A DNA stretch of 39,909 nt, taken from the IMG/VR virus record IMGVR_UViG_2706794690_000014. One strand, given 5' to 3'. Position numbers and translations under genes: made by a program. The number at the start of each line of letters is the position of its first letter. Within the stretch, counting starts at the first letter, position 1. The notes below the pieces were generated by a model. It made no database searches and was not told the DNA's origin. It saw nothing but the letters and a program-made list of their open reading frames with translations. This document shows, piece by piece, positions 1 to 39,909 of this stretch. The DNA comes from a virus. Lineage: Duplodnaviria > Heunggongvirae > Uroviricota > Caudoviricetes.

Positions 1-381
1 ATGCAGAAAAATGTGACTCCCGGCAGGCGAAAAGGCTGCCCTAATTATCCTCCCGAATTTAAACAGCAGCTCGTTGCTGCCTCCTGTGAACCCGGGATAT
101 CCATCTCAAAACTTGCTCTTGAAAATGGCATTAACGCCAATCTGTTGTTCAAATGGCGACAACAATGGCGCGAGGGAAAGCTGCTATTACCTTCTTCAGA
201 GAGCCCCCAGCTACTTCCTGTGACTCTCGATGCAGCTGCCGAACAGCCAGAATCGCTCGCAGAGGACCCGAAAACCCTCAGTATCAGCTGTGAGGTAACG
301 TTCCGGCACGGGACGCTCCGCTTCAATGGCAATGTCAGCGAAAAGCTCCTGACTCTGCTGATACAGGAACTGAAGCGATGA
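1..381 (+). CDS. tnpA: IS66-family accessory protein TnpA (orf1)
   Basis: 126-aa ORF with the size and composition of IS66 orf1; stop overlaps the next ORF start (378-381), as in IS66 operons. Identified from recalled family features, not a search. Confidence 0.7.
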   Translation: MQKNVTPGRRKGCPNYPPEFKQQLVAASCEPGISISKLALENGINANLLFKWRQQWREGKLLLPSSESPQLLPVTLDAAAEQPESLAEDPKTLSISCEVTFRHGTLRFNGNVSEKLLTLLIQELKR

Positions 382-701
382 TCCCGTTACCTTCCGGGAT
401 CAAAATTTGGCTGGTTGCCGGTATCACCGATATGAGAAATGGCTTCAACGGCCTGGCTGCGAAAGTACAGACGGCGCTGAAAGACGATCCCATGTCCGGC
501 CATGTTTTCATTTTCCGGGGCCGCAGCGGCAGTCAGGTTAAACTGCTGTGGTCCACCAGTGACGGACTGTGCCTCCTGACCAAACGGCTGGAGCGTGGGC
601 GCTTCGCCTGGCCGTCAGCCCGTGATGGCAAAGTGTTCCTTACACAGGCGCAGCTGGCGATGCTGCTGGAAGGTATCGACTGGCGACATATAACCAGGTG
701 A
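378..701 (+). CDS. tnpB: IS66-family protein TnpB (orf2)
   Basis: 107-aa ORF coupled to tnpA by ATGA overlap; typical IS66 orf2 size and position. The expected orf3 (tnpC) does not follow; phage DNA starts instead. Confidence 0.75.
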   Translation: MIPLPSGIKIWLVAGITDMRNGFNGLAAKVQTALKDDPMSGHVFIFRGRSGSQVKLLWSTSDGLCLLTKRLERGRFAWPSARDGKVFLTQAQLAMLLEGIDWRHITR

Positions 702-702
702 A

Positions 703-862
703 TCATTTGATACCGACAAGGGGTTTAGTGAAAGGAGGTGAAATCACCTGTAAGATACTGAAATAAAACAGGTGATGGCTAGATGTGCGGATAAGGTCTA
801 TTTGATACCGATTGTGCAATAATTAGTCATTTATTATAAAATCGGCAACTCATTTGATACTG
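703..862. repeat. Left-end cluster of putative transposase-binding repeats (attL)
   Basis: Three direct copies seen in sequence: tcatttgataccg (703-715), ctatttgataccg (798-810), tcatttgatactg (850-862). The same motif occurs inverted at the right end. Confidence 0.6.
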
Positions 863-934
863 TGGTTTTAGTCTTTTAAGGCGTTCCAAACAATGCGAAA
901 TACTCGATATAGTGCAAAATGCGGGCTAATGCTA

Positions 935-1480
935 TTAACCCGCTTTTGGTTCTACCGCGTTAGATTTGCGACTTCTCTCAGTTTCTTCCAAAATCTCTCT
1001 GACGCGTTCGTCAGACATACCTTCAAGCTGTAATGCAGCTATTCTTTTCCTTCCTTCTAAGCGGATTAGATCTTGATTTTCAGGCTCTAACAACCGAGCT
1101 AAGTACTTGGCTCCATTCAGAACCAAATTTTTCGATAGCTGCTCTAAGTCTTTTTCATCAAGTGCGCTGATAATCGTCATAATTATCTTCTTGCTTTCAT
1201 CTTGATTTTCCTTGATCTCACACCGATTCACTTGTGATGCATCACTGAATCCACATAGCCACTCAACACTTACTCCTTCGATAGACGCAATCTGAAGGGC
1301 GACACTTAAGGATGGCTCAGTGCCACGAGACAGATAATTGTTTAGTGTTGAAAATGAAAGCCCCCAATCTCTTGCTGCAGCTCTGACGCTGCGGGAGCCA
1401 ATCAGCCTTTTCAGACGCTCAGCAATGCTTTCTTTTCTACCACCAGGAAAAGAAAGAGATGTTGTTGTTTGCTTGTTCAT
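935..1480 (-). CDS. Phage repressor (c-like), HTH DNA-binding protein
   Basis: 181-aa minus-strand ORF divergent from ner and the transposase operon; N-terminal region reads as a helix-turn-helix. Position matches the Mu c repressor. Confidence 0.6.
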   Translation of the reverse strand: MNKQTTTSLSFPGGRKESIAERLKRLIGSRSVRAAARDWGLSFSTLNNYLSRGTEPSLSVALQIASIEGVSVEWLCGFSDASQVNRCEIKENQDESKKIIMTIISALDEKDLEQLSKNLVLNGAKYLARLLEPENQDLIRLEGRKRIAALQLEGMSDERVREILEETERSRKSNAVEPKAG

Positions 1481-1534
1481 TTTCTTTTCTTCCTATCAAT
1501 TTGAAATTATTAACTTTTAGTGTTGTCAGCAACC

Positions 1535-1636
1535 ATTGATCCACAATAGACAAAAGAAAGATGTTTTTTTTGCTTTACATGAAGCAGAAGTGGATCAATA
1601 CTTATATCAAACTTGATAACTAAGTTTAGTTATCAA
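1535..1636. promoter_or_regulatory. Operator/divergent promoter region between repressor and ner
   Basis: Perfect 24-bp palindrome ttgataactaa-gt-ttagttatcaa (1613-1636) and a perfect 10-bp inverted repeat attgatccac/gtggatcaat (1535-1544 and 1590-1599), in the AT-rich gap between divergent genes. Confidence 0.45.
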
Positions 1637-1665
1637 ATTTCGTAACTTTTTAGGATAGATGAATC

Positions 1666-1896
1666 ATGGCGAGAAATGAAGTTAAGCCTGATTGGCATCC
1701 TCAAAGAATTTTGGGGGAAGTCAGAGCCAGAGAAGGAAGCATGAGGGCGCTGGCCCGTAAAGCTGGCGTGGGTCAGAACAATCTGTACAACGCGGTATAC
1801 CGCCATGTTCCCAAGTATGAGGGGATTATCGCGGAATGCCTGGGGGTGCCGCCCGAGGAGATTTGGCCCAGCCGCTACATTCGTAAGGTCGCGTAA
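1666..1896 (+). CDS. ner: Ner-like DNA-binding protein (Ner/Nlp family)
   Basis: 76-aa ORF immediately upstream of the transposase gene. Contains the conserved W-H and C-terminal IWPSRY motifs characteristic of Mu Ner. Confidence 0.85.
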   Translation: MARNEVKPDWHPQRILGEVRAREGSMRALARKAGVGQNNLYNAVYRHVPKYEGIIAECLGVPPEEIWPSRYIRKVA

Positions 1897-1898
1897 TT

Positions 1899-3986
1899 AT
1901 GTTTGCTTCAGTTAAAGAACTGGTTGGATTACCGGGGATGCCGGGAACGGAGCAAGGCGTTCGCTATTCAATCAGGAAGTATGCAACCAGCGAAACCAGC
2001 AGACGCCGCAAGAAAGGCGCTAAAGGTTTTGAATACAGCATTGACTGTTTACCTGAAGTGACACAGCAGGCATTACGCGAACGTTATGCCCTGCAACTGA
2101 TGACGCAAAAAGCCGATGAATCACCGGCTCCGGTGGTGACAAAGGCCAGACGCTCGTCTGCCGTGGTTGATGCGGTGGAGGCATATCGCGGATCACCACA
2201 ACTGATGGTCGAACGCCTCAATGCCCTGACTGAAAACCAGCGCCAGGTGGCAGACGCACGCATTGCGATCGTCAGTGAGGTGCTGAAATTCACGCAACAA
2301 CCCGGTTTCAGCTGCGCTAAAGCTATCCGGTTCCTCGTTAACAGCCTGGCACGATCACAACTGGACGAGCGCATTGTGGCAATGGTTGAGACGGCGAACG
2401 CCAAAAAGGGAAACAGCCGCGCGTTGAGTGAAATCACGCTGAAACGCTGGATTGCGGCCTTTAACAAGGCACAGAACGCCGCTGAACGCCTGCTTTTACT
2501 GGCACCGGGTAAACGCCAGGAAATAAAAGCCGAAGATATTAACTGGCTGCCCGAATTTCTGGCGCAGTATCGCCAGTCAAACGGCCGACCAATGACCGAG
2601 GCTTACGAGGATTTTGTTGCTGAATGGCAGCACCGGCACGCTGATGAGCCTTATATGCTCGATATCATGCCCTCTTATGACACCATTCGCCGCGCAATGA
2701 AGAAACTGCCGGAAGTGGTGAAACAAAAAGGCCGGGTAACTGGCAGTGAATACCGTCAGCTTGAGGGATTCACGCGCCGCGACTGGTCCAGAATGCCGGT
2801 GAATTATGTCTGGATTGGTGACGGTCACGGCATGAAGCTGAAATGCGCGCACCCGGTTCACGGGCGGCCATTCGCACCGGAAGTGACCTTTGTTATCGAC
2901 GGTGGCACGCGCTTTGTGGTGGGCTGGAGCCTTGACCTGGCTGAAAATGTTTTCGCCGTAGCCGGTGCCATACAGCACGGTATTCGCCATCATGGCAAAC
3001 CGTTTCTGTATTACTCGGATAATGGCTCCGGGGAAACCGCCGACGTCCTGGATAAGGAGATTGTGGGGATACTGCCACGACTGGGGATTAATCACCCGAC
3101 AGGGATTGCCGGTAATCCGCAGGGACGGGGCATTATCGAACGGCTTAACCGCACATTACCGATGCGCATAGCCCGTAAATACCGCACCTATTTCGGGAAA
3201 GGAGCAGATCGCGAGACGTTACGTAAAACCAACCGCGATTTACGCTCGGCATTCAGTGCCCTGCAACAGGGCAAACGGCTGAACGCCCGGCAGCAGTCAG
3301 CGATGCGTGATTTACCGTCCTGGTCTGAACTGATTGATGCCATTCGTGACGGTGTTGAGTGGTACAACAACCGGCCGCACGATGAATTACCCATGAAGCC
3401 GAACGGTAAACATTACAGCCCGGCGGAGTTCAGAAAAAAACGCCTGGCGGAAGAGGACACGGAAATTGAATGGCTGTCCGATGTTGAACTGCGGGATATG
3501 TTCCGGCCGATGGTGGAGCGCCCTGTAAGACGCTGTGAAATACGCTGGCTGAATAATATTTACTACGCGCCCGAGCTGCGTGACGAGCATGGCCGTAAGG
3601 TACTTATCAGCTATGACATTCATGATGCCGAACGAATTACCGTGCGCCGCCCGGATGGCAGCGTGATTTGCGAGGCGGTATGGGACGGCAATAAACGCGA
3701 AGCCTTCCCTGTCAGCGCGGAATACTACAAACAGCAGCAGCGCCTTAAAGGCATGCGTAAACGCGCAGAGGAAAAAATCCGTGATGCCGAGGATGAGGTT
3801 GTCAACGTGCTGGAGCACAAGCCGCAGGAGCCCTGGCTGGAAAACATATACCGCCCTGTGGGTAATACGGTGACCGTTCAGCAACCGGTCGCTGACGATG
3901 AACCTGATGAAGAATACGAGCGTAATTTCCAGCGGGGATTGCAACTGCTCGAAGCGAAATTAAAAGAAAGTGATCCGCTGGCCTGA
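1899..3986 (+). CDS. DDE transposase, MuA-like
   Basis: 695-aa ORF following ner, with an integrase-core-like region (VWIGDGHGMKL...). Size and position match Mu transposase A. Confidence 0.85.
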   Translation: MFASVKELVGLPGMPGTEQGVRYSIRKYATSETSRRRKKGAKGFEYSIDCLPEVTQQALRERYALQLMTQKADESPAPVVTKARRSSAVVDAVEAYRGSPQLMVERLNALTENQRQVADARIAIVSEVLKFTQQPGFSCAKAIRFLVNSLARSQLDERIVAMVETANAKKGNSRALSEITLKRWIAAFNKAQNAAERLLLLAPGKRQEIKAEDINWLPEFLAQYRQSNGRPMTEAYEDFVAEWQHRHADEPYMLDIMPSYDTIRRAMKKLPEVVKQKGRVTGSEYRQLEGFTRRDWSRMPVNYVWIGDGHGMKLKCAHPVHGRPFAPEVTFVIDGGTRFVVGWSLDLAENVFAVAGAIQHGIRHHGKPFLYYSDNGSGETADVLDKEIVGILPRLGINHPTGIAGNPQGRGIIERLNRTLPMRIARKYRTYFGKGADRETLRKTNRDLRSAFSALQQGKRLNARQQSAMRDLPSWSELIDAIRDGVEWYNNRPHDELPMKPNGKHYSPAEFRKKRLAEEDTEIEWLSDVELRDMFRPMVERPVRRCEIRWLNNIYYAPELRDEHGRKVLISYDIHDAERITVRRPDGSVICEAVWDGNKREAFPVSAEYYKQQQRLKGMRKRAEEKIRDAEDEVVNVLEHKPQEPWLENIYRPVGNTVTVQQPVADDEPDEEYERNFQRGLQLLEAKLKESDPLA

Positions 3987-4068
3987 AATAAAAAAATAAC
4001 CCGAGGGGTGACTCAGGTTATTTGAGGTTTCAGTCTCGGAGAATGCTGTCTCAAGCGAGGTGAATAAT

Positions 4069-5001
4069 ATGACCGATATTAACGATGTAATCAAGACCAT
4101 TGATGAACTTATTGATGGCGGCGTACTGACGCAGTATGCCATCGCCAGAGAGGCGGGAATTTCCGACGGCACATTATCGGCTTTCCGTAAGGGAAAATAT
4201 AAAGGCGATAACGCTGCTGTGGCTGCTTCCCTGCGCTCCTGGTATGAGAACTGGAATAAACAAAGCGCACTGCCGGAACCGCCGCAGTTTGTGGAAACTC
4301 AGACAGTCCAGGAGCTGCGCGCACTGTTTCAGGCGGTTCGCCTGATGGGCTGTATTAACGTTATTGTGGGCGTACCGGGTGTGGGTAAAACGGCCACTGC
4401 CCGTAATTACTGCCAGGAGCAACCAAACACCTGGATGATCACCCTGTCACCCGCGCACTCCAGCGTCACGGAGTGTCTGCTGGAGCTGGCCGATGCGCTG
4501 GGGATTGATTACACCCGCGCGAACAAAGGGGCATTATCCCGCGCCATCCGCCGTCGCCTGATGGGAACGCGTGGACTGGTGATTGTGGATGAGGCGGATC
4601 ATCTTGGTATTGACGGTCTGGAGCAACTCCGGGCAATTCAGGACGCCACGGGGATCGGGATGGTGCTTATTGGTAACCCGCGCGGATTGTTTAAAGGTGG
4701 ACGCCGCGCCTTTGATGATTTATCGCGCCTGTTCAGCCGTCTTGCCCGTACAAAACAACTTCGCAAGGCCAAAAAGGCGGATGTGCTGGCCATTGCCATG
4801 GCGTGGGGGATCAGTGGTGAGGCCGAGCTGGCCGTCATGCAGGCTATCGCTGAAAAGCCGGGAGCGTTACGCGTTCTGACACATACGCTTAACCAGGCGT
4901 GGCTCACCGCCAGCGGTGAAGGCGCGGCGCTGACAGAAAAACATATTAATGCGGCCTTTAAAGAGGTTTATACCAACCCTGAATTACTCTCACAGGTGTG
5001 A
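4069..5001 (+). CDS. Transposition ATPase, MuB-like (AAA+)
   Basis: Walker A motif GVPGVGKT; follows the transposase. ATG at 4069 with GAGG 8 nt upstream is preferred over the GTG at 4060. Confidence 0.8.
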   Translation: MTDINDVIKTIDELIDGGVLTQYAIAREAGISDGTLSAFRKGKYKGDNAAVAASLRSWYENWNKQSALPEPPQFVETQTVQELRALFQAVRLMGCINVIVGVPGVGKTATARNYCQEQPNTWMITLSPAHSSVTECLLELADALGIDYTRANKGALSRAIRRRLMGTRGLVIVDEADHLGIDGLEQLRAIQDATGIGMVLIGNPRGLFKGGRRAFDDLSRLFSRLARTKQLRKAKKADVLAIAMAWGISGEAELAVMQAIAEKPGALRVLTHTLNQAWLTASGEGAALTEKHINAAFKEVYTNPELLSQV

Positions 5002-5003
5002 TT

Positions 5004-5225
5004 ATGGCGGTATTTAATATTCCTGATATTTACGGACGCTTTTACCTGGTTAATTTCGATAACGTGAAGGTGATTTCACTGGCCGAAAATAAAGAATGTG
5101 GCGATTTACTTTTTGAATTTAATGACCGCACACGAATGGTGATATCTGCCGGACTTGATCGCGAAGGTGCGACAGAAGTTTACAGCGGAATATGCCGTTC
5201 TGTTGGTGCGAAACAAGTCAGCTAA
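5004..5225 (+). CDS. Hypothetical early protein
   Basis: ORF in the early accessory region; start abuts the MuB stop. No recognisable domain. Confidence 0.4.
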   Translation: MAVFNIPDIYGRFYLVNFDNVKVISLAENKECGDLLFEFNDRTRMVISAGLDREGATEVYSGICRSVGAKQVS

Positions 5226-5237
5226 ATGAGGTGTTAT

Positions 5238-5492
5238 ATGAATATGCAATCCTGCGGTAACAAAATGAATTTATTCGACTCCCTGAACAGCGCGCGCCGT
5301 CTGACCGAACTTGCCGGTGCGGTACTGGAACGCAGTAAGCGCTATCCGCAACGTTTTGCACTGAAAACCACGCCGCCGGTAGGCAACGTGCAGGGAACCG
5401 GTGAAATTGAAATCACCATACAGACCAACGGCCTGCGCCGCCGTGTGAAGGCCACCCGCATCAGCGGCTGCACGGTTTACTGGGAGGTGTGA
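5238..5492 (+). CDS. Hypothetical early protein
   Basis: ORF with GAGGTG upstream; start could be 5226, 5238 or 5244. Confidence 0.4.
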   Translation: MNMQSCGNKMNLFDSLNSARRLTELAGAVLERSKRYPQRFALKTTPPVGNVQGTGEIEITIQTNGLRRRVKATRISGCTVYWEV

Positions 5493-5493
5493 G

Positions 5494-5775
5494 GTGAAAA
5501 AAAATCTCATTGCATGGGCGTGGTCGAGTGGTCTTATTGAGTTTGGTTACGTCCTGCCGGAAGGTGCATTGCCGATAGTTGCCGGAAAGCCTGCCACGGT
5601 ACGGCATGTGATTGAGGTTATGGCGCGTCATGGACGTGATGAACAGGAGCAGTTACTGGTTCCGGGGATACCGGAAGCGGTGACGGAGGAAGAAGCCTTT
5701 AATGCCATGATTCGGTTCTGCCGTGAGGTTAGACGCCGGGTCAGTTATCCAAACAGAACGAGGACCAGAGGATGA
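5494..5775 (+). CDS. Hypothetical early protein
   Basis: GTG start with GGAGG 8 nt upstream; tightly packed with neighbours. Confidence 0.45.
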   Translation: MKKNLIAWAWSSGLIEFGYVLPEGALPIVAGKPATVRHVIEVMARHGRDEQEQLLVPGIPEAVTEEEAFNAMIRFCREVRRRVSYPNRTRTRG

Positions 5776-6044
5776 GTAAAGTCGTACGCATTATTTTCGA
5801 ATACAAGGAAGATGTTATCTGCAAAAACTCTGATGGCAGCACGCACAGAGGGGTAAGTCTGGATATACGTTCAACCGGAATAAAGAAGAAAGATAATGGA
5901 CCCGCCATGATTTTTGGGGTGGTTATGCTGGCAGAAAGCAGAAACTTCGCAGAGTTTGTGGCAATGAAAGCCAGTGCATTCATGAAAGACAGAGGCATGG
6001 CTTCCGGGGTTATTAACGGTAATGAATTTAATCAACAGGGGTAA
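5772..6044 (+). CDS. Hypothetical early protein (paralog 1 of a tandem pair)
   Basis: Begins MSKVVRIIFEY; N-terminus resembles the next ORF (MSKVRVIFEF). Confidence 0.5.
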   Translation: MSKVVRIIFEYKEDVICKNSDGSTHRGVSLDIRSTGIKKKDNGPAMIFGVVMLAESRNFAEFVAMKASAFMKDRGMASGVINGNEFNQQG

Positions 6045-6048
6045 TTCC

Positions 6049-6342
6049 ATGAGCAAAGTACGCGTTATTTTTGAATTTAATCATGTTTCGCATGACGAAA
6101 AGTTGGCAGGCAATGACTGTGTTGAAGTGCATGAAAAGATTGGAGTGGATGTGAAAACAGAACGTGATACGGATAACAGGCCGACGTCACTCTGTGACGT
6201 TTATGCAAGTATTCTCCAGTATCACAGTCCTGCAATTATTCAGTTTCTCTCAGCGGAATTTCAGGCATCTGCACAGTCTTTTGGAGCGGATGCCATCATT
6301 AAACGCCACCGCGTGCATAAAGCATCAGGCACACTGCAATAA
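6049..6342 (+). CDS. Hypothetical early protein (paralog 2 of a tandem pair)
   Basis: ATG at 6049 gives MSKVRVIFEFNH; similar N-terminus to the upstream ORF at both DNA and protein level. Confidence 0.5.
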   Translation: MSKVRVIFEFNHVSHDEKLAGNDCVEVHEKIGVDVKTERDTDNRPTSLCDVYASILQYHSPAIIQFLSAEFQASAQSFGADAIIKRHRVHKASGTLQ

Positions 6343-6353
6343 GGAAAAACAAA

Positions 6354-6884: not shown

Positions 6885-7029
6885 CACCGCATTAATCAAT
6901 TAAATATCACTTCATTTTAATTATGGCGCTCGCGTCAGGGGACTGCTTGCGCCTGAAAACAGAAAATAAGGGTTAAGAAATATGAAATACGTTTATATCG
7001 TCATTAATAATGTGGTGGGGAAATAAATC

Positions 7030-8078: not shown

Positions 8079-8081
8079 TGC

Positions 8082-8962: not shown

Positions 8963-9098
8963 GCAAATTGTTGAATGTCCCACCTGTGGAAATGAGGACC
9001 CGGAGTATCTGAAAGAGTGCCCACATTGTGGTGAGATAAAATGTAACCACTGCGATATGGGCGACGACACTGCATGTATAAATTGTGAGGATGAATAA
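8955..9098 (+). CDS. Small Cys-rich zinc-ribbon protein (47 aa)
   Basis: MDEQIVECPTCGNEDPEYLKECPHCGEIKCNHCDMGDDTACINCEDE: four Cys pairs. Below the ORF-track size cut-off; found by reading the gap. Confidence 0.4.
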   Translation: MDEQIVECPTCGNEDPEYLKECPHCGEIKCNHCDMGDDTACINCEDE

Positions 9099-9099
9099 T

Positions 9100-9607: not shown

Positions 9608-9635
9608 AGATTTTTCCTTTTATGTTAATTGACAT

Positions 9636-9664: not shown

Positions 9665-9677
9665 TGGAGCCACGATA

Positions 9678-10190: not shown

Positions 10191-10194
10191 CCCC

Positions 10195-10754: not shown

Positions 10755-11255
10755 ATGCCAAAACTCCCCGCACCCCTGCGTAAAAAGCTGATTGCCCTTG
10801 TTCTGGCCGGAGCCGGGACGTTCACCATTGCCACGCACTACACCGGCTACTGGGAAGGGAAAGAAAACACCACGTACATTGATCCCACCGGCACCCCCAC
10901 CATCTGTTACGGCCATACCGGCCCGGATGTGAAACCGGGGATGACAAAAACTGATGAAGAGTGTCTGGAGCTGCTGGAAAAGGACATGAAATGGGCCTTT
11001 GCGGCTATCGATCGTCATGTTCAGGTGCCGCTTACCCGTGGTCAGACGGTGGCGCTGGCCTCCTGGATTTTCTGGGCCGGTGAAACGAACTTTCGCAACT
11101 CCACGCTCCTGCGCCTTATCAATGCCGGGCAGATGCCCGCGTCCTGTAAGCAGTATATCCGCTGGATTTATTCAAAGGGGGTAAAACTCCCCGGTCTTGA
11201 GGCCCGCCGTTCGGCGGATGAATGGTTATGTCGTTACGATTTGCCGAAAGTCTGA
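10755..11255 (+). CDS. lys: Endolysin (phage lysozyme) with N-terminal SAR-type signal anchor
   Basis: Catalytic E-x8-D-x5-T pattern (WEGKENTTYIDPTGTPTICYGHT); weakly hydrophobic Gly/Ala-rich N-terminus (LIALVLAGAGTFTIATHY). Confidence 0.8.
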   Translation: MPKLPAPLRKKLIALVLAGAGTFTIATHYTGYWEGKENTTYIDPTGTPTICYGHTGPDVKPGMTKTDEECLELLEKDMKWAFAAIDRHVQVPLTRGQTVALASWIFWAGETNFRNSTLLRLINAGQMPASCKQYIRWIYSKGVKLPGLEARRSADEWLCRYDLPKV

Positions 11256-18145: not shown

Positions 18146-18225
18146 GGTCAGTGGCGGGGGTCGAACCCGCATACATGATCCACCCGGAGGCAGGCACCGA
18201 CTTTACCAGTTAAGCGTACACTGAC
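18146..18225 (-). ncRNA. tRNA-like element (possible degenerate tRNA)
   Basis: On the minus strand: 7-bp acceptor stem, U8, D-loop-like TAACTGGTAA, and a perfect T-arm (GCGGG-TTCGACC-CCCGC). No convincing anticodon stem could be folded by eye. Confidence 0.25.
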
Positions 18226-31818: not shown

Positions 31819-32369
31819 CCCTGACCCCGCATCAGCGCGCCCTGTTGCAGTTACTGCCTGACGGGCTGGCATGGGACAAGCGTCCGTCATCCGTACTGGC
31901 ATCATTATGTCTGGGCCTCAGTCATTCGACAGCGCGTGTATCCTGGACGGGTAAACAGCTGCTTGCCGAGCGTTTCCCTGACACGTCGCGCCTGCTGCTG
32001 GAAGACTGGGAGCGTTATCTCGGGCTTCCCGAGTGTGATATGGCCGGAGCCACCCTCACGGAGCGACAGCGTTATGCCGGAAATAAATACCGGATGAAGC
32101 CCTCGCTGAACCGTGAATTTTATATCCGGTTTGCGGCGGAGTTTGGTTATCAGATTGACATTCAGCCCTCACCGGATTCGCAGTGGGTCAGTATTGTCAC
32201 GATTAACAGTGAAACCGGCTACCGGAATATGAATGTGCTGGATGATATTCTCACGCCGCTGCGTATTTATGAAGGCGGTGCGCTGGAATGTATTCTGAAC
32301 CGTTATAAGCCTGCATGGCAGACGTTTATTTACGTTTATGCAAACAGCCATGAAGAGGAGACTATTTAA
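31809..32369 (+). CDS. Tail protein (Mu gp48-like)
   Basis: 186-aa ORF immediately before the tail fiber gene. Confidence 0.65.
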
Positions 32370-33250
32370 TGTTTCATGTTGATAATAATTCCGGCGTGGC
32401 GAATATGCCTGCGCTGGCACCGGCGCAGAGTAATACCACCACCTGGTTTACCGAAGGTGACGGACAAAAAGGTATCAGCTGGATTGGTCAGGACTGGCTG
32501 AATATTCTCCAGGCCGAACTGCTGAATATTCTGGCTGAAGCCAGTATTCAGCCGGATAAGGCGCAGTTAAACCAGCTTACGCTGTCCATTAAAGCCATTA
32601 TCGCTGCGAATGCCTTTTCCCGGAAAAATAACCTGAAAGAAATTGCTGATGCCGGTGCGGAGGCCCAGCGTCTGGCCCGTGGTTATCTTGGTCTGGGGAC
32701 GCTTGCCACAAAAAACAGTCTTGGTCCCGCTGACGTTAATGCCCTGGCGAAGGATCAGAATCTCGCCGACCTGGAGAATAAGGGAACCGCCCGTAATAAT
32801 CTGGATGTTTACAGCAAAAGCGAAGGTGATAACCGTTACCTGCGCAGGGAGCAGAACGGCGCAGACATTCCGGATAAAGGGGCTTTTATCGATAACGTCG
32901 GTTTACGGGAAACGGTAAACAGGGCGGCGAATGCCCTGCCATCGGACGGCACCGCCGTTGCCGCGAACAGGCTGGCAAATGCCCACACAATTAATGGTGT
33001 TCCCTTTGACGGGACGCAGGATATCACTATCTCATCAGGAACAGTAACCGCCATAAGACTGGGGTCGGTGACCGCACATATGCCCGGAACATGGGAAAGC
33101 TGGGATCTGAATCTGGGGGGCGGCAATGTTCTTACCGGAATTAAAGTACAGGATGTCGGTAAGAATACGGCAGATAACGTCGGCGGCGTGTATTACCGGC
33201 CGTTGCAGTATCTGTTAAATGGAGCATGGGTGACGGCTGCAAGTATATAA
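32369..33250 (+). CDS. Tail fiber protein (constant N-terminal part plus invertible variable C-terminal part)
   Basis: 293-aa ORF; a gix-like site lies in-frame at codons FIDNVGLRE (32886-32911), so everything 3' of 32899 is inside the invertible segment. Confidence 0.8.
32886..32911. repeat. gix-like recombination site, left
   Basis: ttatcgataacg-tc-ggtttacgggaa: two 12-bp half-sites around a 2-bp core; the right half is the exact reverse complement of the left half of the right site. Confidence 0.7.
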
Positions 33251-33259
33251 TGATATTCA

Positions 33260-33277
33260 GAAGGCCTTCCGGCCTTC
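33260..33277. terminator. Bidirectional terminator-like hairpin between convergent genes
   Basis: gaaggcc-ttcc-ggccttc followed by tttatta, between the tail fiber stop (33250) and the minus-strand assembly gene stop (33282). Confidence 0.5.
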
Positions 33278-33281
33278 TTTA

Positions 33282-33803
33282 TTACTGTGGCTGCTCAGGC
33301 CATTTAATGGCGTTAAATTCAGCTTCTGTTTTAATGGCGGGTAGTTCCATTTTCTTCACCTGACTGATGTATGCCATCCATTGGGTAAGTGCTGCTCTGT
33401 CTTCATCGCTGATGGTGCCCAGTTGTAGCTCCGTTCTCCAGTCATTAATTTTTTCATATGCCTGATTAAGATATGACTGGCGCATTGCTTCCAGTTTTCT
33501 TGCGTAGTTAACCGGAATACGGGAGATTATGCCATTATCAAACTTCCAGTTTCCTGAAATATCCGTGCCTTCAGGGAGTTCATCGACCTCAACCACAGAA
33601 AACCCCGCAGGATACAGCGCCGAGGCGTCCTGTGATATTGAGCAGATAACGCCGCTGTCAGGTGTTATGCAAAGTTTATATTTTTTGGTGAATAATGGCA
33701 GGGATTCGTAGAAATCCTTACCATCTTCACTCTGGAAATACTGAACATTATTACCATATGGCATATTTTCAGGATAATAACGGGTTATATTTTTTAGTTC
33801 CAT
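33282..33803 (-). CDS. Tail fiber assembly protein (U'-like)
   Basis: 173-aa minus-strand ORF inside the invertible segment, directly downstream of the silent alternative fiber cassette. Confidence 0.7.
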   Translation of the reverse strand: MELKNITRYYPENMPYGNNVQYFQSEDGKDFYESLPLFTKKYKLCITPDSGVICSISQDASALYPAGFSVVEVDELPEGTDISGNWKFDNGIISRIPVNYARKLEAMRQSYLNQAYEKINDWRTELQLGTISDEDRAALTQWMAYISQVKKMELPAIKTEAEFNAIKWPEQPQ

Positions 33804-33854
33804 AAAATCCTCCTGGAAATAAATCTGTTTTAAAATATATTATTTACTGACTAT

Positions 33855-34215
33855 TTATAACTGAGATACCGTAATCCATGTACCTCCGACTAATTTTTGC
33901 AGGGGTCTGAATGCTATAAAATCGTTTGAAGCATCAACTTTACTGTCAATCTGCAGGCCTGCCATAACATTACCGTACGCAGAGTAATATGCCCCACCGT
34001 ACATTACCTGCCTGTTCTCTGCTCCCAGCCTGATATCCTGGATATATCGGGAATCCGCATCCTGCTGTGTTATACCAGAAGTGATGTTTATGTCCTGCGT
34101 CCCGTCAAAGGGAACCCCATTAATATTTCTTGGGGTGGCGAGTCTATTCGCGGCAACGGCGGTGCCGTCCGATGGCAGAGCATTCGCCGCCCTGTTTACC
34201 GTTTCCCGTAAACCG
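33855..34215 (-). CDS. Silent alternative tail-fiber C-terminal cassette (S'v-like, no start codon)
   Basis: Minus-strand frame open from the right gix site to a TAA at 33855-33857 (~119 codons). Its first ~40 codons mirror the tail fiber ([23 protein letters not shown]...GVPFDGTQD), then diverge. Confidence 0.55.
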
Positions 34216-34228
34216 AGGTTTTCAGGAA
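34203..34228. repeat. gix-like recombination site, right
   Basis: ttcccgtaaacc-ga-ggttttcaggaa, closely matching the recalled Gin/Hin-family crossover consensus; 66 bp upstream of gin. Confidence 0.7.
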
Positions 34229-34293
34229 AGCCAGGATTAACTCTGTTTTATTCCTCATGCGACAATTCCGGCTTTTTATAATAAGGAAATCGT

Positions 34294-34866
34294 ATGCTGA
34301 TTGGGTATATCAGGGTGTCAACAAATGACCAGAATACGGCGCTACAAAGAAATGCGCTGGAATGTGCAGGATGTGAGCTGTTTTTCGAAGACAGAATAAG
34401 CGGTAAGACAAGGGAGCGTCCCGGACTTAAACGCGCATTAAAGCGACTCCGGCCAGGGGATACCCTGCTGGTCTGGAAACTGGATCGCCTTGGACGCAGT
34501 ATGCAGCACCTTGTCCTTTTAACAGAAGAACTCCGGCAACGCGGCGTTAACTTCCGCAGCATTACGGACAATATTGATACATCCACTCCCATGGGACGTT
34601 TCTTTTTCCATATAATGGGCGCGCTGGCGGAAATGGAGCGGGAACTCATTATTGAACGTACACGCGCGGGTCTTGCTGCTGCCCGTGCTCAGGGGCGTCA
34701 TGGCGGCAGACCTCAGAAACTGACAGAGAAAGAGCGGGAGCAAATCGCCCGTTTGCTGGCTAATGGCGAGTCCCGTAAACAAATCGCACTGATATTTGAT
34801 ATTGGCCTTTCCACCCTTTATCGTTATTTTCCTGCCTCACCAGCTCCGTCACCAAAAGTACCGTGA
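34294..34866 (+). CDS. gin: Serine DNA invertase (Gin/Hin/Pin family)
   Basis: N-terminal catalytic region MLIGYIRVSTNDQ and C-terminal HTH (GESRKQIALIFDIGLSTLYRYF), both typical of serine invertases. Confidence 0.9.
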   Translation: MLIGYIRVSTNDQNTALQRNALECAGCELFFEDRISGKTRERPGLKRALKRLRPGDTLLVWKLDRLGRSMQHLVLLTEELRQRGVNFRSITDNIDTSTPMGRFFFHIMGALAEMERELIIERTRAGLAAARAQGRHGGRPQKLTEKEREQIARLLANGESRKQIALIFDIGLSTLYRYFPASPAPSPKVP

Positions 34867-34951
34867 CGCTTTTTTGAATTTCCGCAAAACACATATTTTT
34901 CAGCGGTCGCTATTCTGACTCTGTTTAATTCAGAAACAGGCAGAAAAGACG

Positions 34952-37006
34952 ATGTCAGACTCCAAGTGGAAAATGCTCTCCGCCATGCCCGGAGAGTTTT
35001 CAGTCAAGGTTGCCGGTGGCACGGTGGCATTTATTGAAAGCCCTTTCCGCCCTTCGGGTAATAAAGGGGGGATCACCTTCGCAGACTGCGTGATCCGCTT
35101 CAGCACGAAAGAGCCATTATGGGTAATGCCGGTATCCGGTAATCCCAGTGCAGAAATCACCAGTTCAGGCGTGACTGGCATCATTCCAATCACATCTGAC
35201 GTGGCCGGAACGCTCACGCCCTCCGACTGGAATGCACCGGATAACGCCGGGCCTTCCGGTAGCACGAATGGCAGCAGTTCAGAGCCGGAATATTACTTTG
35301 TTGTCATTCTCGCGGGTCAGTCAAATGGCATGGCCTACGGCGAGGGGCTGCCGTTACCGGATTCGTTTGACCGCCCGGACCCACGCATTAAGCAACTGGC
35401 ACGCCGCAGTACGGTAACGCCCAACGGTACGTCGTGTACATACAACGACATCATTCCGGCAGACCACTGCCTGCATGATGTTCAGGATATGAGCGGGATA
35501 AACCACCCGAAAGCTGATCTGGCAAAAGGCCAGTACGGGACTGTCGGTCAGGGGTTGCATATTGCCAAAAAACTGCTTCCCTATATCCCACAGAATGCCG
35601 GGATACTTCTGGTGCCCTGTTGTCGTGGCGGGTCAGCATTCACCACTGGAGCCGACGGCTCATTCAGTGAGGCCAGCGGTGCTTCCGCTGATTCTTCACG
35701 CTGGGGGGCCGGTAAACCTCTGTATCAGGACCTGGTAAGCCGCACCAAAGTCGCGCTGGCGAAAAACCCGAAAAACAAACTTCTGGCTGTGGTCTGGATG
35801 CAGGGAGAGGCAGACCTTGCCTCAGGAAGCCAGCAGCATAATAGTTTATTCACGGCCATGGTTCAGCAGTTCAGAACTGACCTGGCTCCGCTTGCTGCGC
35901 AGTGCGTGAGTGGAAATGCCACCACGGTGCCGTGGATTTGCGGTGATACCACGTATTACTGGAAAAACGCTGGCACCGATAAATATGAGGCAGTATACGG
36001 TGGCTACAAAGGCAAGGAAGCACAGAAAATTTTCTTTGTACCGTTCCTGACGGATGAGAATGGACAGAGCACGCCAACGAATGCTCCGGCGGAAGACCCG
36101 GATATTGTGGCTGTCGGGTATTACGGTGCAGCATCCCGAACCCAGGGCAGTTTTGTTTCGACACAGCGTGACAGCCATTTCAGCTCATGGGCACGCAGGG
36201 GCGTCATTTCAGACCGTCTGGCCTCAGCTATTATGCTCCATGCAGGGCGCACGGCTGAACTGATGCGTGGGCAGACCGTGACACCACCGGATGAGAAGCC
36301 GTCACCTGATACACCATCAAAACCGTCCACGCCACCCGCAGACACCACGACGATGAGTACGCTATTTGCTTACCGGGCATCTGAGTCTGAAGGACGGTTG
36401 ACACCACAGGGTTGGGCTGCCGGAGGTGGCAAGGCTCAAATCGTGGATGATGCCGGAGCCAGCGGGGGTAAGGCAATGAAACTGACCAAGGAAACAGGAA
36501 GAGCCCCCTGGTACCTTGAGCATGATGCTGGTAATGGTGCGGACCTGCTGGGTAAAGGTGGTCTTGTCAGTTGTCGTTTTAAACTCGATGGCGCGCTTAC
36601 GGCTAATCAGTACGCACTGGCGCTGTACTGGCCGGTTTCTGCCCTGCCGCAAGGGGTTACTCTGGAAGGAAATGCCGGTCATAACCTGCTGGCATCGTTC
36701 TACGTACAGAGCGATGCCACAGACCTTAACGTGATGTATCACAAAGGAAACACGGCGCAGAACACGAAGCTGGGGTCATTCGGCGCATTTAATAACGAAT
36801 GGCATACGCTGGGCTTCCGTTTTGCCGGTAACAACAGTATTGAGGTGACGCCGGTCATTGATGGTAAGGACGGGACACCATTCATGCTGTCGCAGTCTCC
36901 GGTCGGCACGTTTACGGCAGACAAGTTGCGCGTGACCGATATCACTAAAAATGCGACTTACCCGGTACTGATTGACAGTATCGTGGTGGAAGTGAATAAC
37001 GCGTAA
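34952..37006 (+). CDS. nanS-p: SGNH/SASA-type esterase, prophage NanS-p-like (putative sialate O-acetylesterase)
   Basis: 684-aa ORF with the catalytic-serine motif ILAGQSNGMAYGEG; large C-terminal region typical of prophage esterases. Not a Mu core gene. Confidence 0.6.
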   Translation: MSDSKWKMLSAMPGEFSVKVAGGTVAFIESPFRPSGNKGGITFADCVIRFSTKEPLWVMPVSGNPSAEITSSGVTGIIPITSDVAGTLTPSDWNAPDNAGPSGSTNGSSSEPEYYFVVILAGQSNGMAYGEGLPLPDSFDRPDPRIKQLARRSTVTPNGTSCTYNDIIPADHCLHDVQDMSGINHPKADLAKGQYGTVGQGLHIAKKLLPYIPQNAGILLVPCCRGGSAFTTGADGSFSEASGASADSSRWGAGKPLYQDLVSRTKVALAKNPKNKLLAVVWMQGEADLASGSQQHNSLFTAMVQQFRTDLAPLAAQCVSGNATTVPWICGDTTYYWKNAGTDKYEAVYGGYKGKEAQKIFFVPFLTDENGQSTPTNAPAEDPDIVAVGYYGAASRTQGSFVSTQRDSHFSSWARRGVISDRLASAIMLHAGRTAELMRGQTVTPPDEKPSPDTPSKPSTPPADTTTMSTLFAYRASESEGRLTPQGWAAGGGKAQIVDDAGASGGKAMKLTKETGRAPWYLEHDAGNGADLLGKGGLVSCRFKLDGALTANQYALALYWPVSALPQGVTLEGNAGHNLLASFYVQSDATDLNVMYHKGNTAQNTKLGSFGAFNNEWHTLGFRFAGNNSIEVTPVIDGKDGTPFMLSQSPVGTFTADKLRVTDITKNATYPVLIDSIVVEVNNA

Positions 37007-37021
37007 GCAGGATAAAAAAAT

Positions 37022-37055
37022 GCCGCCGGTAAGGGAAAACAAGAAACCGGCGGCA
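37022..37055 (-). terminator. Terminator-like hairpin, U-tract on the minus-strand side
   Basis: 10-bp stem tgccgccggt/accggcggca with a 15-nt loop; A7 upstream and A5 downstream on the plus strand, so the T-run follows the stem only when read on the minus strand. Confidence 0.4.
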
Positions 37056-37150
37056 AAAAGATCGTTATATCCAAAGCAAAAAATGCAGTGCACCTTTTTA
37101 CCTAACAGATATTACCGGTGTCAACACCATGTCAATAATTGGGAGGGATA

Positions 37151-37333
37151 ATGACATTTTTACAGCTTATTTTATTGTATTTCTGCACGGCAGTATGTGC
37201 GTTATATCTGGTGAGTGGTGGTTATAAGGCCATCAGAAATTATGTTCGCCGCAAAATTGAGGACGCAGCAGCTGAAAAACTCAGTAAAACAGCGCAGGTA
37301 ACTCCGCTCCCAAAAGACCCGACCCAGCCCTGA
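37151..37333 (+). CDS. Small membrane protein (60 aa, single N-terminal TM)
   Basis: GGGAGGG RBS then ATG at 37151; hydrophobic N-terminus (FLQLILLYFCTAVCALYLV) and basic cytoplasmic tail. Confidence 0.45.
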   Translation: MTFLQLILLYFCTAVCALYLVSGGYKAIRNYVRRKIEDAAAEKLSKTAQVTPLPKDPTQP

Positions 37334-37348
37334 TTGCAGGGCTTTATT
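37326..37348 (+). terminator. Terminator-like hairpin
   Basis: agccctg-attg-cagggct followed by ttatt; overlaps the stop of the small membrane protein gene. Confidence 0.4.
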
Positions 37349-37368
37349 CCCGCATAAGGAGGATATAC

Positions 37369-37623
37369 ATGCCAGAAATTAAAGGCACCGTCACTGAAGA
37401 CCTGGTAAAACAGGCACTGTATTCCGGTGAAGTAAATAAGTTGCTGAAAGCGCAGGTCCGCAAGGATTTTGAGGCACAAATCGACACTTACGTTGATGAA
37501 GTGCTGGCAAAACTTATTGGGCCAGCAGTTGCGGCCAGTGATGCTGATAATGAGCCGAAAACCGACGCGCAGCCAGAGCAACCAGACCCGGCTCAGCCCG
37601 GAACTGACAGTACCATGATGTAA
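37369..37623 (+). CDS. Small acidic hypothetical protein (84 aa)
   Basis: Strong RBS TAAGGAGG 7 nt upstream of the ATG; helical N-terminal half, acidic Pro-rich C-terminus. Confidence 0.5.
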   Translation: MPEIKGTVTEDLVKQALYSGEVNKLLKAQVRKDFEAQIDTYVDEVLAKLIGPAVAASDADNEPKTDAQPEQPDPAQPGTDSTMM

Positions 37624-37790
37624 CAATACAAACCGGTGGTGTCCTCTGCCGGTTTGACACTAATGAAAACATCTTTGCCGCTATCCAGCCATATGTAATC
37701 GCTGGATAGTATTTCGTATTCAGAAATATAGCTGCTTATGGAGCAGTCAATCCTGCTTCCCCATCCGGGCAGGCAAATGAACCGGTATCA

Positions 37791-38084
37791 TTAGTCCGAT
37801 TCACGCTTTTGTAGAATCGTTCCCAGAATGCTATACAGCTCATTAGCCTGTTGCTCCATCATTGAGACGGAGGCTATACGGTGCAAAGTGATTTCAGGAG
37901 GTGGCACACCTCCATCTTCTTGCTGTGGAGGAAAAACATAAGATTTAATAAAAAAGTTGAAGCATATGAACTCTCCCGCACTCGAACTGTATTTGCAGGC
38001 ATCTGAATAATCGGAAAAATAATCATTATAGATTTCCGCATTTTCAATCATTTTTCGATTTCTCGTCGTTACATGATTGTCCAT
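37791..38084 (-). CDS. Hypothetical protein, minus strand, in AT-rich cargo DNA
   Basis: 97-aa ORF divergent from com/mom, with a ~210-bp AT-rich upstream region. Confidence 0.4.
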   Translation of the reverse strand: MDNHVTTRNRKMIENAEIYNDYFSDYSDACKYSSSAGEFICFNFFIKSYVFPPQQEDGGVPPPEITLHRIASVSMMEQQANELYSILGTILQKRESD

Positions 38085-38204
38085 AGCAGCCTCTTACGCT
38101 GGCAATTAACCAATTGACTTCTATAAATTAGTTGATTTGTTTGCTTTGCGGTATTCAAATGTACAATCATTCAGCACTTATGCGTTACAGCACCGTTTAA
38201 AATT

Positions 38205-38297
38205 AGTGATCAAACTCATAAATTTTCGCTAATGACATTTCGTGTTATTTGTTGTATCAATTAAATAAATCAAATCGATCGTTTTTGTCGATCGATT
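38205..38297. promoter_or_regulatory. GATC-cluster regulatory region upstream of com/mom
   Basis: Three GATC sites (38208-38211, 38277-38280, 38290-38293); the last two lie in a 9-bp inverted repeat aatcgatcg/cgatcgatt. Mu mom is known to be regulated through three Dam sites. Confidence 0.5.
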
Positions 38298-38340
38298 GAG
38301 TGATAAAGATATCAACAACAAAGCAGGAGGTTATGCGGCC

Positions 38341-38541
38341 ATGTATCGAAACATACGGTGCCGACATTGTAACAAGCTACTGGCACGAGCCAGCTTCAGT
38401 TATCTGGAAGTTAAATGTCCGCGCTGTAAAACCCTCAATCAAATCACATCTCAGAGCGCCACAGAGCACCCCACATACACAAGGAAATCCTGTCGTGGGG
38501 AACAGAAAGCAAGTTACATCCCGTATCATCAGCACGCCTGA
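38341..38541 (+). CDS. com: Com-like zinc-finger translational activator
   Basis: [10 protein letters not shown]...VKCPRCK matches the Com zinc-finger pattern; AGGAGG RBS 10 nt upstream; overlaps the mom frame. Confidence 0.7.
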
Positions 38542-39232
38542 ACTTATTCACTATAACGACAATATCGTCGGTTATGGCTCCCGTGAGTTACGGGTTGAGA
38601 CAATAAGTTGCTGGCTGGCCCGGCTGGTCGTCGTCAATAAACATTACAGCCATCGTTTCGTAAATAATTCCTACCTTCATCTGGGCATATTTTCAGAACG
38701 GGAGCTGGTTGGCGTAATGCAATGGGGTTATGCCCTTAATCCAAACAATGGTGCACGCGTCGTAACTGGCACGCAGAACCGCGAATATATGGAGCTTAAC
38801 CGGTTATGGCTGCATGACTGTATGCCGAGAAACTCCGAATCAAGGGCAATCAGTTACGCGCTCAAACTAATCAGACAACTTTATCCGCAGGTGCAGTGGG
38901 TTCAGTCGTTTGCAGATGAGCGTTGTGGCTGTCTTGGTGTCGTGTACCAGGCAAGCAATTTTGATTATGTAGGCAGTCATGAAACAACATTCTATGAACT
39001 TGATGGCGAGTGGTATCACGAGATTTGCAAGAATGCAATCAAACGAGGAGGACAGCGAGGTGAACATCTGCGGGCTAATATCGACAGAGCCAGTGTTCAT
39101 AAATTCCGTCAGTTTCGTTACATCCGGTTTCTGGACAAGAGAGCCAGAAAACGCCTTAACACAAAGCTATTCAAAGTCCAGCCTTACCCAAAACCACAAA
39201 CAGTTAAAACTGGTTTGAAAGAGAGTGAATGA
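38495..39232 (+). CDS. mom: Mom-like DNA modification protein (start uncertain; frame is open from 38300)
   Basis: Last gene before the right end, overlapping com; C-terminal half has motifs ([33 protein letters not shown]) that fit my recollection of Mom. GTG 38495 chosen for a short overlap with com. Confidence 0.55.
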
Positions 39233-39277
39233 ACGCTTAAAAACTCATTCTAAAACTCAAAAGAAAAGCGCCGATTT

Positions 39278-39346
39278 AGTATCAAATAAGTTGCGTATCG
39301 GCGTTTTTCAGCGGTATCAAATGAAATGCAAATCGGTATCAAAAAA
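39278..39346. repeat. Right-end cluster of putative transposase-binding repeats (attR)
   Basis: Three inverted copies of the left-end motif: agtatcaaataag (39278-39290), cggtatcaaatga (39312-39324), cggtatcaaaaaa (39334-39346). Confidence 0.6.
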
Positions 39347-39390
39347 ATCGCCGCGCTATAGACAGCCTAAGCGGCTGCTGACCTCCCTGA

Positions 39391-39909
39391 CCATGCTGTA
39401 AATCTCTTTATCCTGGTTGTCACAGAATAAGCCCGGTAAAATACGGGCTTATGAACGACATCTCTTCTGACGACATCTTCCTGCTGAAACAGCGCCTTGC
39501 CGAACGTCAGTTGAAAACGAAACCGCTGCTGAAATCCCTGGAAAGCTGGCTGCGTGAAAAGATGAAAACCCTGTCGCGACACTCAGAACTGGCGAAAGCG
39601 TTCGCATATGCCCTGAACCAGTGGCCGGCGCTGACGTACTATGCAGATGATGGCTGGGCTGAGGCGGACAATAACATCGCTGAAAATGCGTTGCGGATGG
39701 TCAGTCTGGGCCGCAAAAACTACCTGTTCTTCGGTTCGGATCATGGAGGAGAGCGGGGAGCGCTGCTGTACAGCCTGATCGGGACGTGCAAACTGAACGG
39801 AGTGGAGCCAGAAAGCTACCTCCGCTATGTCCTTGACGTCATAGCCGACTGGCCGATAAACCGGGTCGGCGAACTGCTCCCCTGGCGCGTAGCACTGCCG
39901 ACTGAATAA
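39391..39909 (+). pseudogene. tnpC: IS66-family transposase TnpC (orf3), 3' fragment only
   Basis: Frame opens just after the phage right end and encodes ~170 aa of transposase C-terminus; the N-terminal ~350 codons expected after tnpB are absent. Confidence 0.65.

Follow-up and report, generated by a model that had tools for sequence, protein, structure and literature searches.

A Mu-like prophage of the Sp18-like group nested in a defective IS66-family element of Shigella sonnei: a likely history of four separate events

Phage Mu duplicates 5 bp of its target upon insertion and has termini of the form 5'-TG...CA-3', and insertion sequence (IS) elements of the IS66 family generate an 8-bp target-site duplication. 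Transposable prophages that resemble Mu are also carried by pathogenic Escherichia coli, and one of them, Sp18 of E. coli O157:H7 Sakai, was predicted to be intact and was found to be efficiently packaged (PMC2669165). Ten Sp18-like Mu-like phages were described in Shiga toxin-producing E. coli (STEC) of clonal complex 119, and because six of the ten lie inside other mobile elements (PMC10132054), the nesting of a Mu-like phage in an insertion sequence is expected behaviour for a known kind of transposable phage. Here we analyzed a stretch of 39,909 nucleotides (IMG/VR record IMGVR_UViG_2706794690_000014; the whole stretch is hereafter called the window), which consists of an IS66 left flank, a Mu-like prophage of 38,672 bp (689-39360) and an IS66 right flank. 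The nesting was traced to the chromosome of Shigella sonnei, and the source of the window was absent from the collection of complete E. coli genomes. Our results make it likely that four ordinary events, each separate from the others, are recorded in the window at a single IS66-family element of S. sonnei (ISEc22 family, part, in the annotation of the Prokaryotic Genome Annotation Pipeline, PGAP), namely an old deletion in tnpC, further decay of the element by other insertion sequences, insertion of the phage into tnpB, and recombination with a second IS66 copy nearby.

The insertion site in tnpB and the deletion in tnpC

The original prediction, made from the letters of the window alone, held that a Mu-like prophage is nested in an IS66 element, that both flanks derive from this family and that about 1 kb of tnpC is missing, and all of this was borne out. 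The flanks gave Pfam matches to HTH_Tnp_1, TnpB_IS66, DDE_Tnp_IS66 and DDE_Tnp_IS66_C. When the phage and one copy of the sequence GACA were removed, i.e. when positions 1-688 were joined to 39365-39909 (1,233 bp), an intact tnpB of 115 codons was restored, and the gene order tnpA-tnpB-tnpC and the ATGA overlap of tnpA and tnpB were the same as in intact copies. The reference was an intact IS66 copy of E. coli that spans 2,313 bp between the tnpA start and tnpC stop codons, both included. Against it the joined flanks aligned in two pieces at 99.5-99.8% identity, with positions 1-829 matching reference 1-829 and positions 814-1233 matching reference 1894-2313. Relative to this reference, exactly 1,080 bp of tnpC (360 codons, approximately 19-378) are missing and the reading frame is preserved.

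Because the joined flanks encode a complete 115-aa TnpB and GACA stands on both sides of the phage, the sequence shows that the phage interrupts tnpB at codon 104 by simple insertion with a perfect 4-bp duplication. The corresponding empty site in S. sonnei reads GGCGACAGCC. A 5-bp duplication at this phage was considered, with the boundaries shifted by one base in either direction, and rejected, as the empty site permits 4 bp alone. The search for a 5-bp duplication at the phage ends that had been proposed thus yielded a 4-bp one, and the outcome in which the flanks rejoin into an intact tnpC with a 5-bp duplication did not appear as worded, since they rejoin into tnpB. Likewise, the claim that tnpA and tnpB are both intact at 1-701 holds for tnpA, whereas only 103 codons plus 2 nt of tnpB, ending at 688, are IS66-derived; the open reading frame (ORF) continues into phage DNA to a stop at 701, its last four codons (HITR*) being phage-derived. 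On the other side of the phage, a spacer of the usual kind separates the displaced end of tnpB from the tnpC start codon at 39451. The phage-in-IS66 junction was found in none of the complete E. coli genomes searched.

The third gene had been taken for a 3' fragment only. It was found instead that tnpC does not abut the phage: the spacer in front of it, its native start codon and codons 1-18 are all present, these codons are fused in frame to its last 134 codons, and the deletion junction lies 130 bp from the phage end (39360). The DDE_Tnp_IS66 match in the shortened gene covers only profile positions 195-283 of 284, so that most of the DDE domain is gone. Intact tnpC holds two direct 16-bp repeats, CAGCGCCTGGCCGAAC (814-829) and CAGCGCCTTGCCGAAC (1894-1909), which are identical at 15 of 16 positions and both encode QRLAE. 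Because the deletion is bounded by these repeats, its structure suggests that it arose by slippage or short-homology recombination.

The assembly collection contains the exact 152-aa TnpC protein in 457 blocks. Nine chromosomes of ~4.8-5.0 Mb that are closed or nearly so (L005-L012 and L014), among them that of S. sonnei 53G (HE616528.1, L008, lineage II), encode this protein directly after an intact 115-aa tnpB with no phage present, and the loci are 99.9-100% identical to the joined flanks of the window. Their constant neighbours are IS elements, a tail-fibre-like gene, an LRR_TTSS/NEL effector gene and purL. A further assembly (L013) has the tnpC deletion together with an uninterrupted tnpA. 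The deletion junction occurred in 0 of 5,426 complete E. coli genomes, and the allele was found only in Shigella-type assemblies. Because the same allele is present in phage-free S. sonnei chromosomes with intact tnpB, comparison of these loci shows that the tnpC deletion predates the phage and is a separate event, unrelated to the insertion.

IS66 elements of E. coli and Shigella (ISEc22 family by PGAP) are close to the window flanks (99.5-99.8% identity), and intact copies are widespread in E. coli. Unlike these, the copy in the window has a tnpC that lacks 360 codons and a tnpB split by a phage, and in S. sonnei its left terminal repeat is interrupted. The IS66 termini lie beyond the window. 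Related S. sonnei loci have an intact right terminal repeat (GTAAGCG...) 38 bp past the tnpC stop, and their left one is broken ~9 bp from its tip by an ISSso6-family element. Judged by its coding content, the IS66 copy of the window is a defective derivative that is predicted to be incapable of transposing on its own.

Two IS66 copies and the order of events

About 110 blocks of the assembly collection contain a fusion protein read across the tnpB::phage junction. One closed chromosome, CP176614.1 (L003) of S. sonnei 381259, genotype 3.7.30.4.1, contains the same junction and matches the window at 99.99% identity along 10.3 kb. In this chromosome and in the nine phage-free chromosomes, tnpA is split at 183-185 by a 1,264-bp IS600-family element (PGAP) with a 3-bp duplication. 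The window is without this element in tnpA, as is a draft contig of 47.9 kb (L004) that is 100% identical to the window over 10.7 kb.

The upstream side of this contig resembles a second, intact IS66 element, which we call copy A, the deleted one being copy B. The contig stops within an IS1, whose terminus lies 85 bp before tnpA. All 175 bp that precede tnpA in it, made up of this IS1 end and the leader, match exactly what stands in front of copy A in four chromosomes of S. sonnei, one of which is CP179952.1 (genotype 3.7.30.1). The window tnpA is 100% identical to that of copy A. The right flank of the window has the markers of copy B, i.e. the tnpC deletion and, at joined-flank position 933, a T instead of the C of copy A. 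Copies A and B are direct repeats 16.0-17.4 kb apart (L033, 10001-20381; about 1.00-1.02 Mb in CP179952.1 and CP176614.1). Comparison of the 6-kb flanks of the two copies showed IS matches only and no overlap, whereas 10-kb flanks did overlap: the downstream flank of copy A, which encodes YncE-like, 753-aa TonB-dependent heme-receptor-like, TonB-like and ChaN-like proteins, is collinear with the first part of the copy-B loci, with an identity of 98.3-100% (99.9-100% in every locus except one).

Both copies carry the same 1,463-bp IS110-family (ISSso6) element in the left terminal repeat (L005, 6419-7881; L020, 3679-5141), and copy A has an additional IS1 between this element and the IS66 leader. 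The common site would mean either that ISSso6 targets the repeat or that both copies stem from the duplication of a larger segment.

The history that we favour would have run as follows. An old, in-frame deletion of 1,080 bp between the 16-bp direct repeats of tnpC would have left the element without a transposase. Copy B would then have been degraded further in S. sonnei, with the IS600-family element breaking tnpA and the ISSso6-family element breaking the left terminal repeat. An Sp18-like phage would have entered tnpB at codon 104, with duplication of the 4 bp GACA, in one lineage, that of the genotype 3.7.30.4.1 isolate, and would have been inherited thereafter; because the phage hit a dead element, this insertion was probably neutral. 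Finally, in the sub-lineage of the window, copy B would have undergone homologous recombination with the intact copy A, which lies upstream in the same orientation. The crossover would fall within 503 bp, between tnpA position 186 and the phage, would have removed ~18.65 kb, and would have produced a hybrid with IS1, the leader and intact tnpA from copy A and with tnpB::phage and the deleted tnpC from copy B. Sequence comparisons among the loci establish the first three steps; the fourth, a crossover of A with B to the left of the phage, we infer from contig structure as the simplest account. The complete fusion gene lies on contigs of 20-50 kb in 108 blocks, and 22 further places resemble the draft contig described above. 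A contiguous fusion gene should mean that the 503-bp segment (186-688) is single-copy in those genomes.

Several points weigh against this account. The recombination step was seen in no closed genome, and the hybrid is known only from short-read contigs (the 47.9-kb contig and similar ones). The sole closed chromosome that bears the phage still has IS600 in tnpA, and the stretch of it that was compared ends inside the phage. Positions 1-688 of the window have no differences between copies A and B and a crossover cannot be mapped within them, and the repeats are the one source for the cause of the tnpC deletion. Some of these points also favour the main alternative to the fourth step, in which the intact tnpA of the window is a short-read assembly chimera: the true genome would resemble the closed phage-bearing one, and the assembler would have crossed from the 503-bp repeat, which is identical in copies A and B (186-688), onto the left flank of copy A. 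Window-type structure in draft contigs only, and IS600 in the tnpA of the only closed phage-bearing genome, are what such a chimera predicts. Nevertheless, a two-copy repeat of 503 bp normally breaks contigs at its borders, and yet the 108 blocks have the complete fusion gene on contigs of 20-50 kb and the 22 further places look like the 47.9-kb contig; furthermore, read pairs would not support a join of the left of A to the right of B. These are arguments rather than tests, and with them we regard a chimera as unlikely. Gene conversion would yield the same local structure, if the left part of copy A (IS1, leader and tnpA) were copied onto copy B so as to erase IS600 while both copies and the interval between them were kept. 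Such a tract would have to insert 0.77 kb of IS1 and remove 1.26 kb of IS600, and a retained copy A would leave the 503-bp segment in two copies, at which contigs should break; this makes gene conversion a very improbable source of the hybrid.

The remaining alternatives concern the missing tnpC DNA and were those put forward in the original prediction. A rearrangement at the phage between flanks from different IS66 copies gains some appeal from the two direct copies 16-17 kb apart and from the far-left context of the window, which matches the other copy. However, the same 4-bp duplication occurs at both junctions, the rejoined tnpB is identical to the empty site, and the tnpC DNA is already absent from phage-free copy B, any crossover lying to the left of 688. 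We therefore give a rearrangement at the phage only the slimmest chance as the explanation of the tnpC loss; what survives of the proposal, by accident, is that the left-side context of the window matches a second copy ~17 kb away. Insertion of the phage into tnpC, with loss of ~1 kb of that gene in the same event, agrees with the superficial layout alone, in which the phage stands between tnpB-like sequence and the 3' part of tnpC. It is contradicted by tnpB sequence on both sides of the phage with a perfect 4-bp duplication, by a tnpC that has its own ATG and 18 codons and a junction 130 bp away, and above all by the empty sites, where the identical deletion is found in phage-free chromosomes with intact tnpB. 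Both parts of this proposal, the insertion into tnpC and the accompanying deletion, can be set aside as having practically no probability.

The tnpB::phage junction is a clean lineage marker for an S. sonnei sub-clade related to the genotype 3.7.30.4.1 isolate, and the inferred 18.65-kb deletion would be another. The inferred deletion, if true, would also remove the only intact copy of this IS66 at the locus, and with it the only intact tnpC there, together with the gene cluster of the TonB-dependent heme-receptor-like protein. The finding itself is of little weight, as it describes a pile-up of mobile elements in the IS-rich genome of S. sonnei.

Genes, termini and a tRNA-like RNA of the prophage

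From its gene content, the prophage is apparently intact and complete. An E. coli prophage that is 99.9% identical has 55 coding sequences, and each of them has a full-length counterpart without internal stops in the window; the tape-measure gene, which had been flagged as a split match, has an in-frame length difference of 13 codons and an intact ORF of 698 aa. Pfam matches in the phage comprised HTH_Tnp_Mu_1, Mu-transpos_C, AAA_22, Phage-MuB_C, Portal_Mu, Mu-like_gpT, sheath, Gam, Mor, Resolvase/HTH_7 (Gin) and Mom. The genes are arranged in the order repressor, Ner-like, transposase, MuB-type ATPase, Kil, Gam, GemA, Mor, lysis, portal, gpT capsid, sheath, tube and baseplate, and these are followed in the right part by an invertible tail-fibre segment, a Gin-type invertase, a cargo block and com-mom (Table 1). 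Compared with solved structures in the PDB, only the N-terminal DNA-binding domain of the transposase matches MuA (1tns, E = 7e-6); the catalytic region gave weak scores to retroviral integrases and not to the MuA core, and is too diverged for a sequence match.

Table 1. Positions of IS66 and prophage features in the window.
Feature	Position	Strand	Basis
tnpA, IS66 family, intact, 126 aa	1-381	+	Pfam HTH_Tnp_1
tnpB 5' part, native codons 1-103 and CA of codon 104	378-688	+	Pfam TnpB_IS66 (378-701); alignment to intact reference and empty sites
Left copy of 4-bp target-site duplication GACA	685-688	.	Junctions, empty site
Sp18-like Mu-like transposable prophage, 38,672 bp	689-39360	+	Ends from eight insertions, Pfam
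Three left-end repeats TTTGATAC(C/T)G, spaced like Mu L1-L3	706-715, 801-810, 853-862	+	Motif scan
Immunity and transposition module	935-5001	.	Pfam and ORF listing
Repressor	935-1480	-	
Ner-like gene	1666-1896		
Transposase, 695 aa, HTH_Tnp_Mu_1 and Mu-transpos_C	1899-3986		
MuB-like ATPase	4060-5001		
tRNA-like RNA gene without anticodon loop, 80 nt, antisense between gpF-like and gpG-like genes	18146-18225	-	Rfam tRNA model, PGAP of relatives, covariation
Invertible tail-fibre segment and Gin-type invertase	32891-34866 (inverted repeats 32891-32976 and 34138-34223; gin 34294-34866)		Pfam, repeats, PGAP of relatives
Cargo module between gin and com-mom	34952-37626	+	Pfam, PGAP names in relatives
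SASA-esterase/DUF6645 protein, 684 aa	34952-37006		Pfam
DUF1378 small ORF	~37151-37333		Placed by offset from relatives
DUF826 small ORF	~37369-37623		Placed by offset from relatives
com-mom DNA-modification operon, right end	38341-39232	+	Pfam Mom, PGAP Com and Mom in relatives
com	~38341-38541	+	Placed by offset from relatives
mom	38495-39232	+	Pfam Mom
Three right-end repeats TTTGATAC(C/T)(G/A), inverted orientation, Mu-like spacing	39334-39343, 39312-39321, 39277-39286	-	Motif scan
Right copy of 4-bp target-site duplication GACA	39361-39364	.	Junctions
tnpB displaced 3' end, codons 104-115 (QPKRLLTSLTML*)	39363-39401	+	All-frame reading of right flank
tnpC with in-frame internal deletion, 152 aa vs 512	39451-39909	+	Pfam DDE_Tnp_IS66 and DDE_Tnp_IS66_C
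tnpC deletion junction, one copy of 16-bp repeat CAGCGCCT(G/T)GCCGAAC	39490-39505	+	Alignment to intact tnpC

The inverted repeats of the tail-fibre segment are 86 nt long and 93% complementary. The segment holds a single tail-fibre-assembly gene (33282-33803, minus strand), which is paired with a silent alternative fibre end, and as the segment is now oriented, no assembly gene follows the expressed fibre gene (32369-33250) on its own strand. Part of the esterase gene in the cargo module (35309-35808) is ~76% identical to genes of other E. coli phages, and the module as a whole presumably resembles the nanS-p region of lambdoid Shiga toxin (Stx) phages.

The prophage ends read 5'-TATAACC...GCGCTATA-3', and matches to related prophages in complete E. 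coli genomes begin at window position 689 and end at 39360. We compared eight independent insertions, i.e. that of the window and seven others (four from close relatives, two from phages less closely related, and one that lies within an Stx1a phage), which lie in eight different host genes or elements. They have the common termini 5'-T(A/G)TAACCAGG...CGCCGCGCTATA-3', and all eight are bounded by a perfect 4-bp duplication: GACA in the window, TACG in L015, AACA in L016, GACG in L017, TAGA in L018, TGTG in L029, TACC in L030 and AGAG in L031. The depositors' own annotation of LC727895.1 also gives a 4-bp duplication. The left terminus is TA in the window, and TG occurs only in L031 and in the phage of S. 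sonnei 53G. The three repeats at each phage end are presumed to be transposase-binding sites by their motif and spacing. Literature searches on 4-bp duplication in Mu-like phages and on the LC7278xx records returned nothing relevant.

Furthermore, an RNA gene that resembles a tRNA was found between the genes for the gpF-like and gpG-like proteins, on the strand opposite to theirs. Neither ARAGORN nor an Rfam scan of the entire window at gathering thresholds reported RNA genes, and ARAGORN rejects the element; in a scan of a 200-bp region, the Rfam tRNA model (RF00005) matched it with 31 bits against a gathering score of 29. PGAP applies the label 'tRNA-OTHER' at the homologous spot in six relatives, and homologous positions were located in L015-L018, L029-L031, L066-L071, L073 and L106, with element lengths of 80-90 nt. 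The element has an 8-bp acceptor helix that includes G-1:C73, a D arm and a T arm, and CCA is not encoded. The G-1:C73 pair is the identity pair of E. coli histidyl-tRNA synthetase. The position of the anticodon arm is taken by a variable region of 28-38 nt with a hairpin, which in several variants has a 4-nt loop (UCCG, UUCG or UCAA). Because this variable hairpin replaces an anticodon stem with a 7-nt loop, the structure indicates a tRNA-like RNA rather than a decoding tRNA.

The 121-bp intergenic region that contains the element shows 0-1 differences in each of four relatives, compared with ~4-5 per 100 bp in the flanking genes, and the element is present in IMG/VR relatives down to 61% gpG identity. 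As the close relatives are invariant, covariation was drawn from the diverged IMG/VR relatives. Among 12 distinct variants, 96.6% of cells are paired and compensatory double changes occur in six pairs (four in the acceptor stem and two in the T stem), compared with 0-2 compensatory pairs in shifted-register controls. All 12 variants have G-1, and 11 of them have C at position 73. Folding of the single sequence was non-significant (z = -0.81), and ordinary phage tRNAs with the same D-loop were of mixed isotypes and gave no hint of ancestry. The element was not detected in the records of Mu, D108 and SfMu.

Our tentative reading is that the conserved and structurally constrained tRNA-like RNA of Sp18-like phages may be a functional, non-decoding tRNA mimic. 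Possible roles include a chargeable acceptor, a co-substrate or regulator for a tRNA-dependent Mom, or a decoy against host defences that target tRNA. The Mom enzyme was reported to use charged tRNA (PMC13219725), and a connection of the tRNA-like RNA to the Mom of the same phage is speculation. No description of the element was found in the literature searched (tRNA-like elements in Mu-like prophages and the Mom/tRNA paper), and it may deserve separate follow-up.

Comparison with Sp18-like phages and Mu

The window phage shares with the Sp18-like phages of STEC the gene order repressor, ner, transposase, MuB, gam, mor, lysis, Mu-type head and contractile tail, Gin segment and com-mom. The closest records in the phage collection are the inserts in Stx phages LC727895 and LC727881 (~91-92% DNA identity over 62-91% of the phage), and many E. 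coli prophages are 94-99.9% identical. The termini of LC727895 and of the 53G phage match those of the window except that left-end base 2 is G, and the duplication at LC727895 is also 4 bp. The link to Sp18 is made through O157:H7 relatives and a statement in PMC10132054, and not through an alignment to Sp18 itself. The window phage differs from the Sp18-like phages of STEC in its host, S. sonnei, and in its target, IS66 tnpB, and its left terminus is TA where L031 and the 53G phage have TG.

In E. coli 23CRST047 (NZ_AP045820.1, L018) the nesting is reversed: a prophage of the Sp18-like group carries two IS66-family elements (ISEc43 and ISEc22 types) within phage genes, and its transposase gene is frameshifted. 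In S. sonnei 53G, a different, heteroimmune phage of the group lies in a tail-fibre-like gene, from position 11125 of locus L008 on (the corresponding point in L005 is 11124); in a genome of ~5 Mb, it is only 1,210 bp away from where the window phage inserted. Its early genes are 99.3% identical to those of the window phage, and it has an unrelated immunity region and TG at the left terminus. The two insertions are independent and belong to different lineages of S. sonnei, and their closeness may point to a region that is preferred, or tolerated, as a target.

Like Mu, D108 and SfMu, the window phage has the layout of a transposable temperate myovirus, the corresponding Pfam domains, three repeats per end and insertion at unrelated sites. 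The Mu group shares almost no DNA with it: SfMu matched ~3% of the left-hand 24.3 kb of the window phage, at 71.5%, and the SASA/DUF6645-DUF1378-DUF826 cargo and the tRNA-like RNA gene were not detected in Mu-group records. Unlike Mu, the window phage makes a 4-bp rather than a 5-bp duplication, has termini TA (or TG)...TA rather than TG...CA, and encodes a highly diverged transposase. Altogether, the consistent 4-bp duplications of the Sp18-like group and a transposase far from MuA make the rules derived from Mu unsuitable for the annotation of this group.

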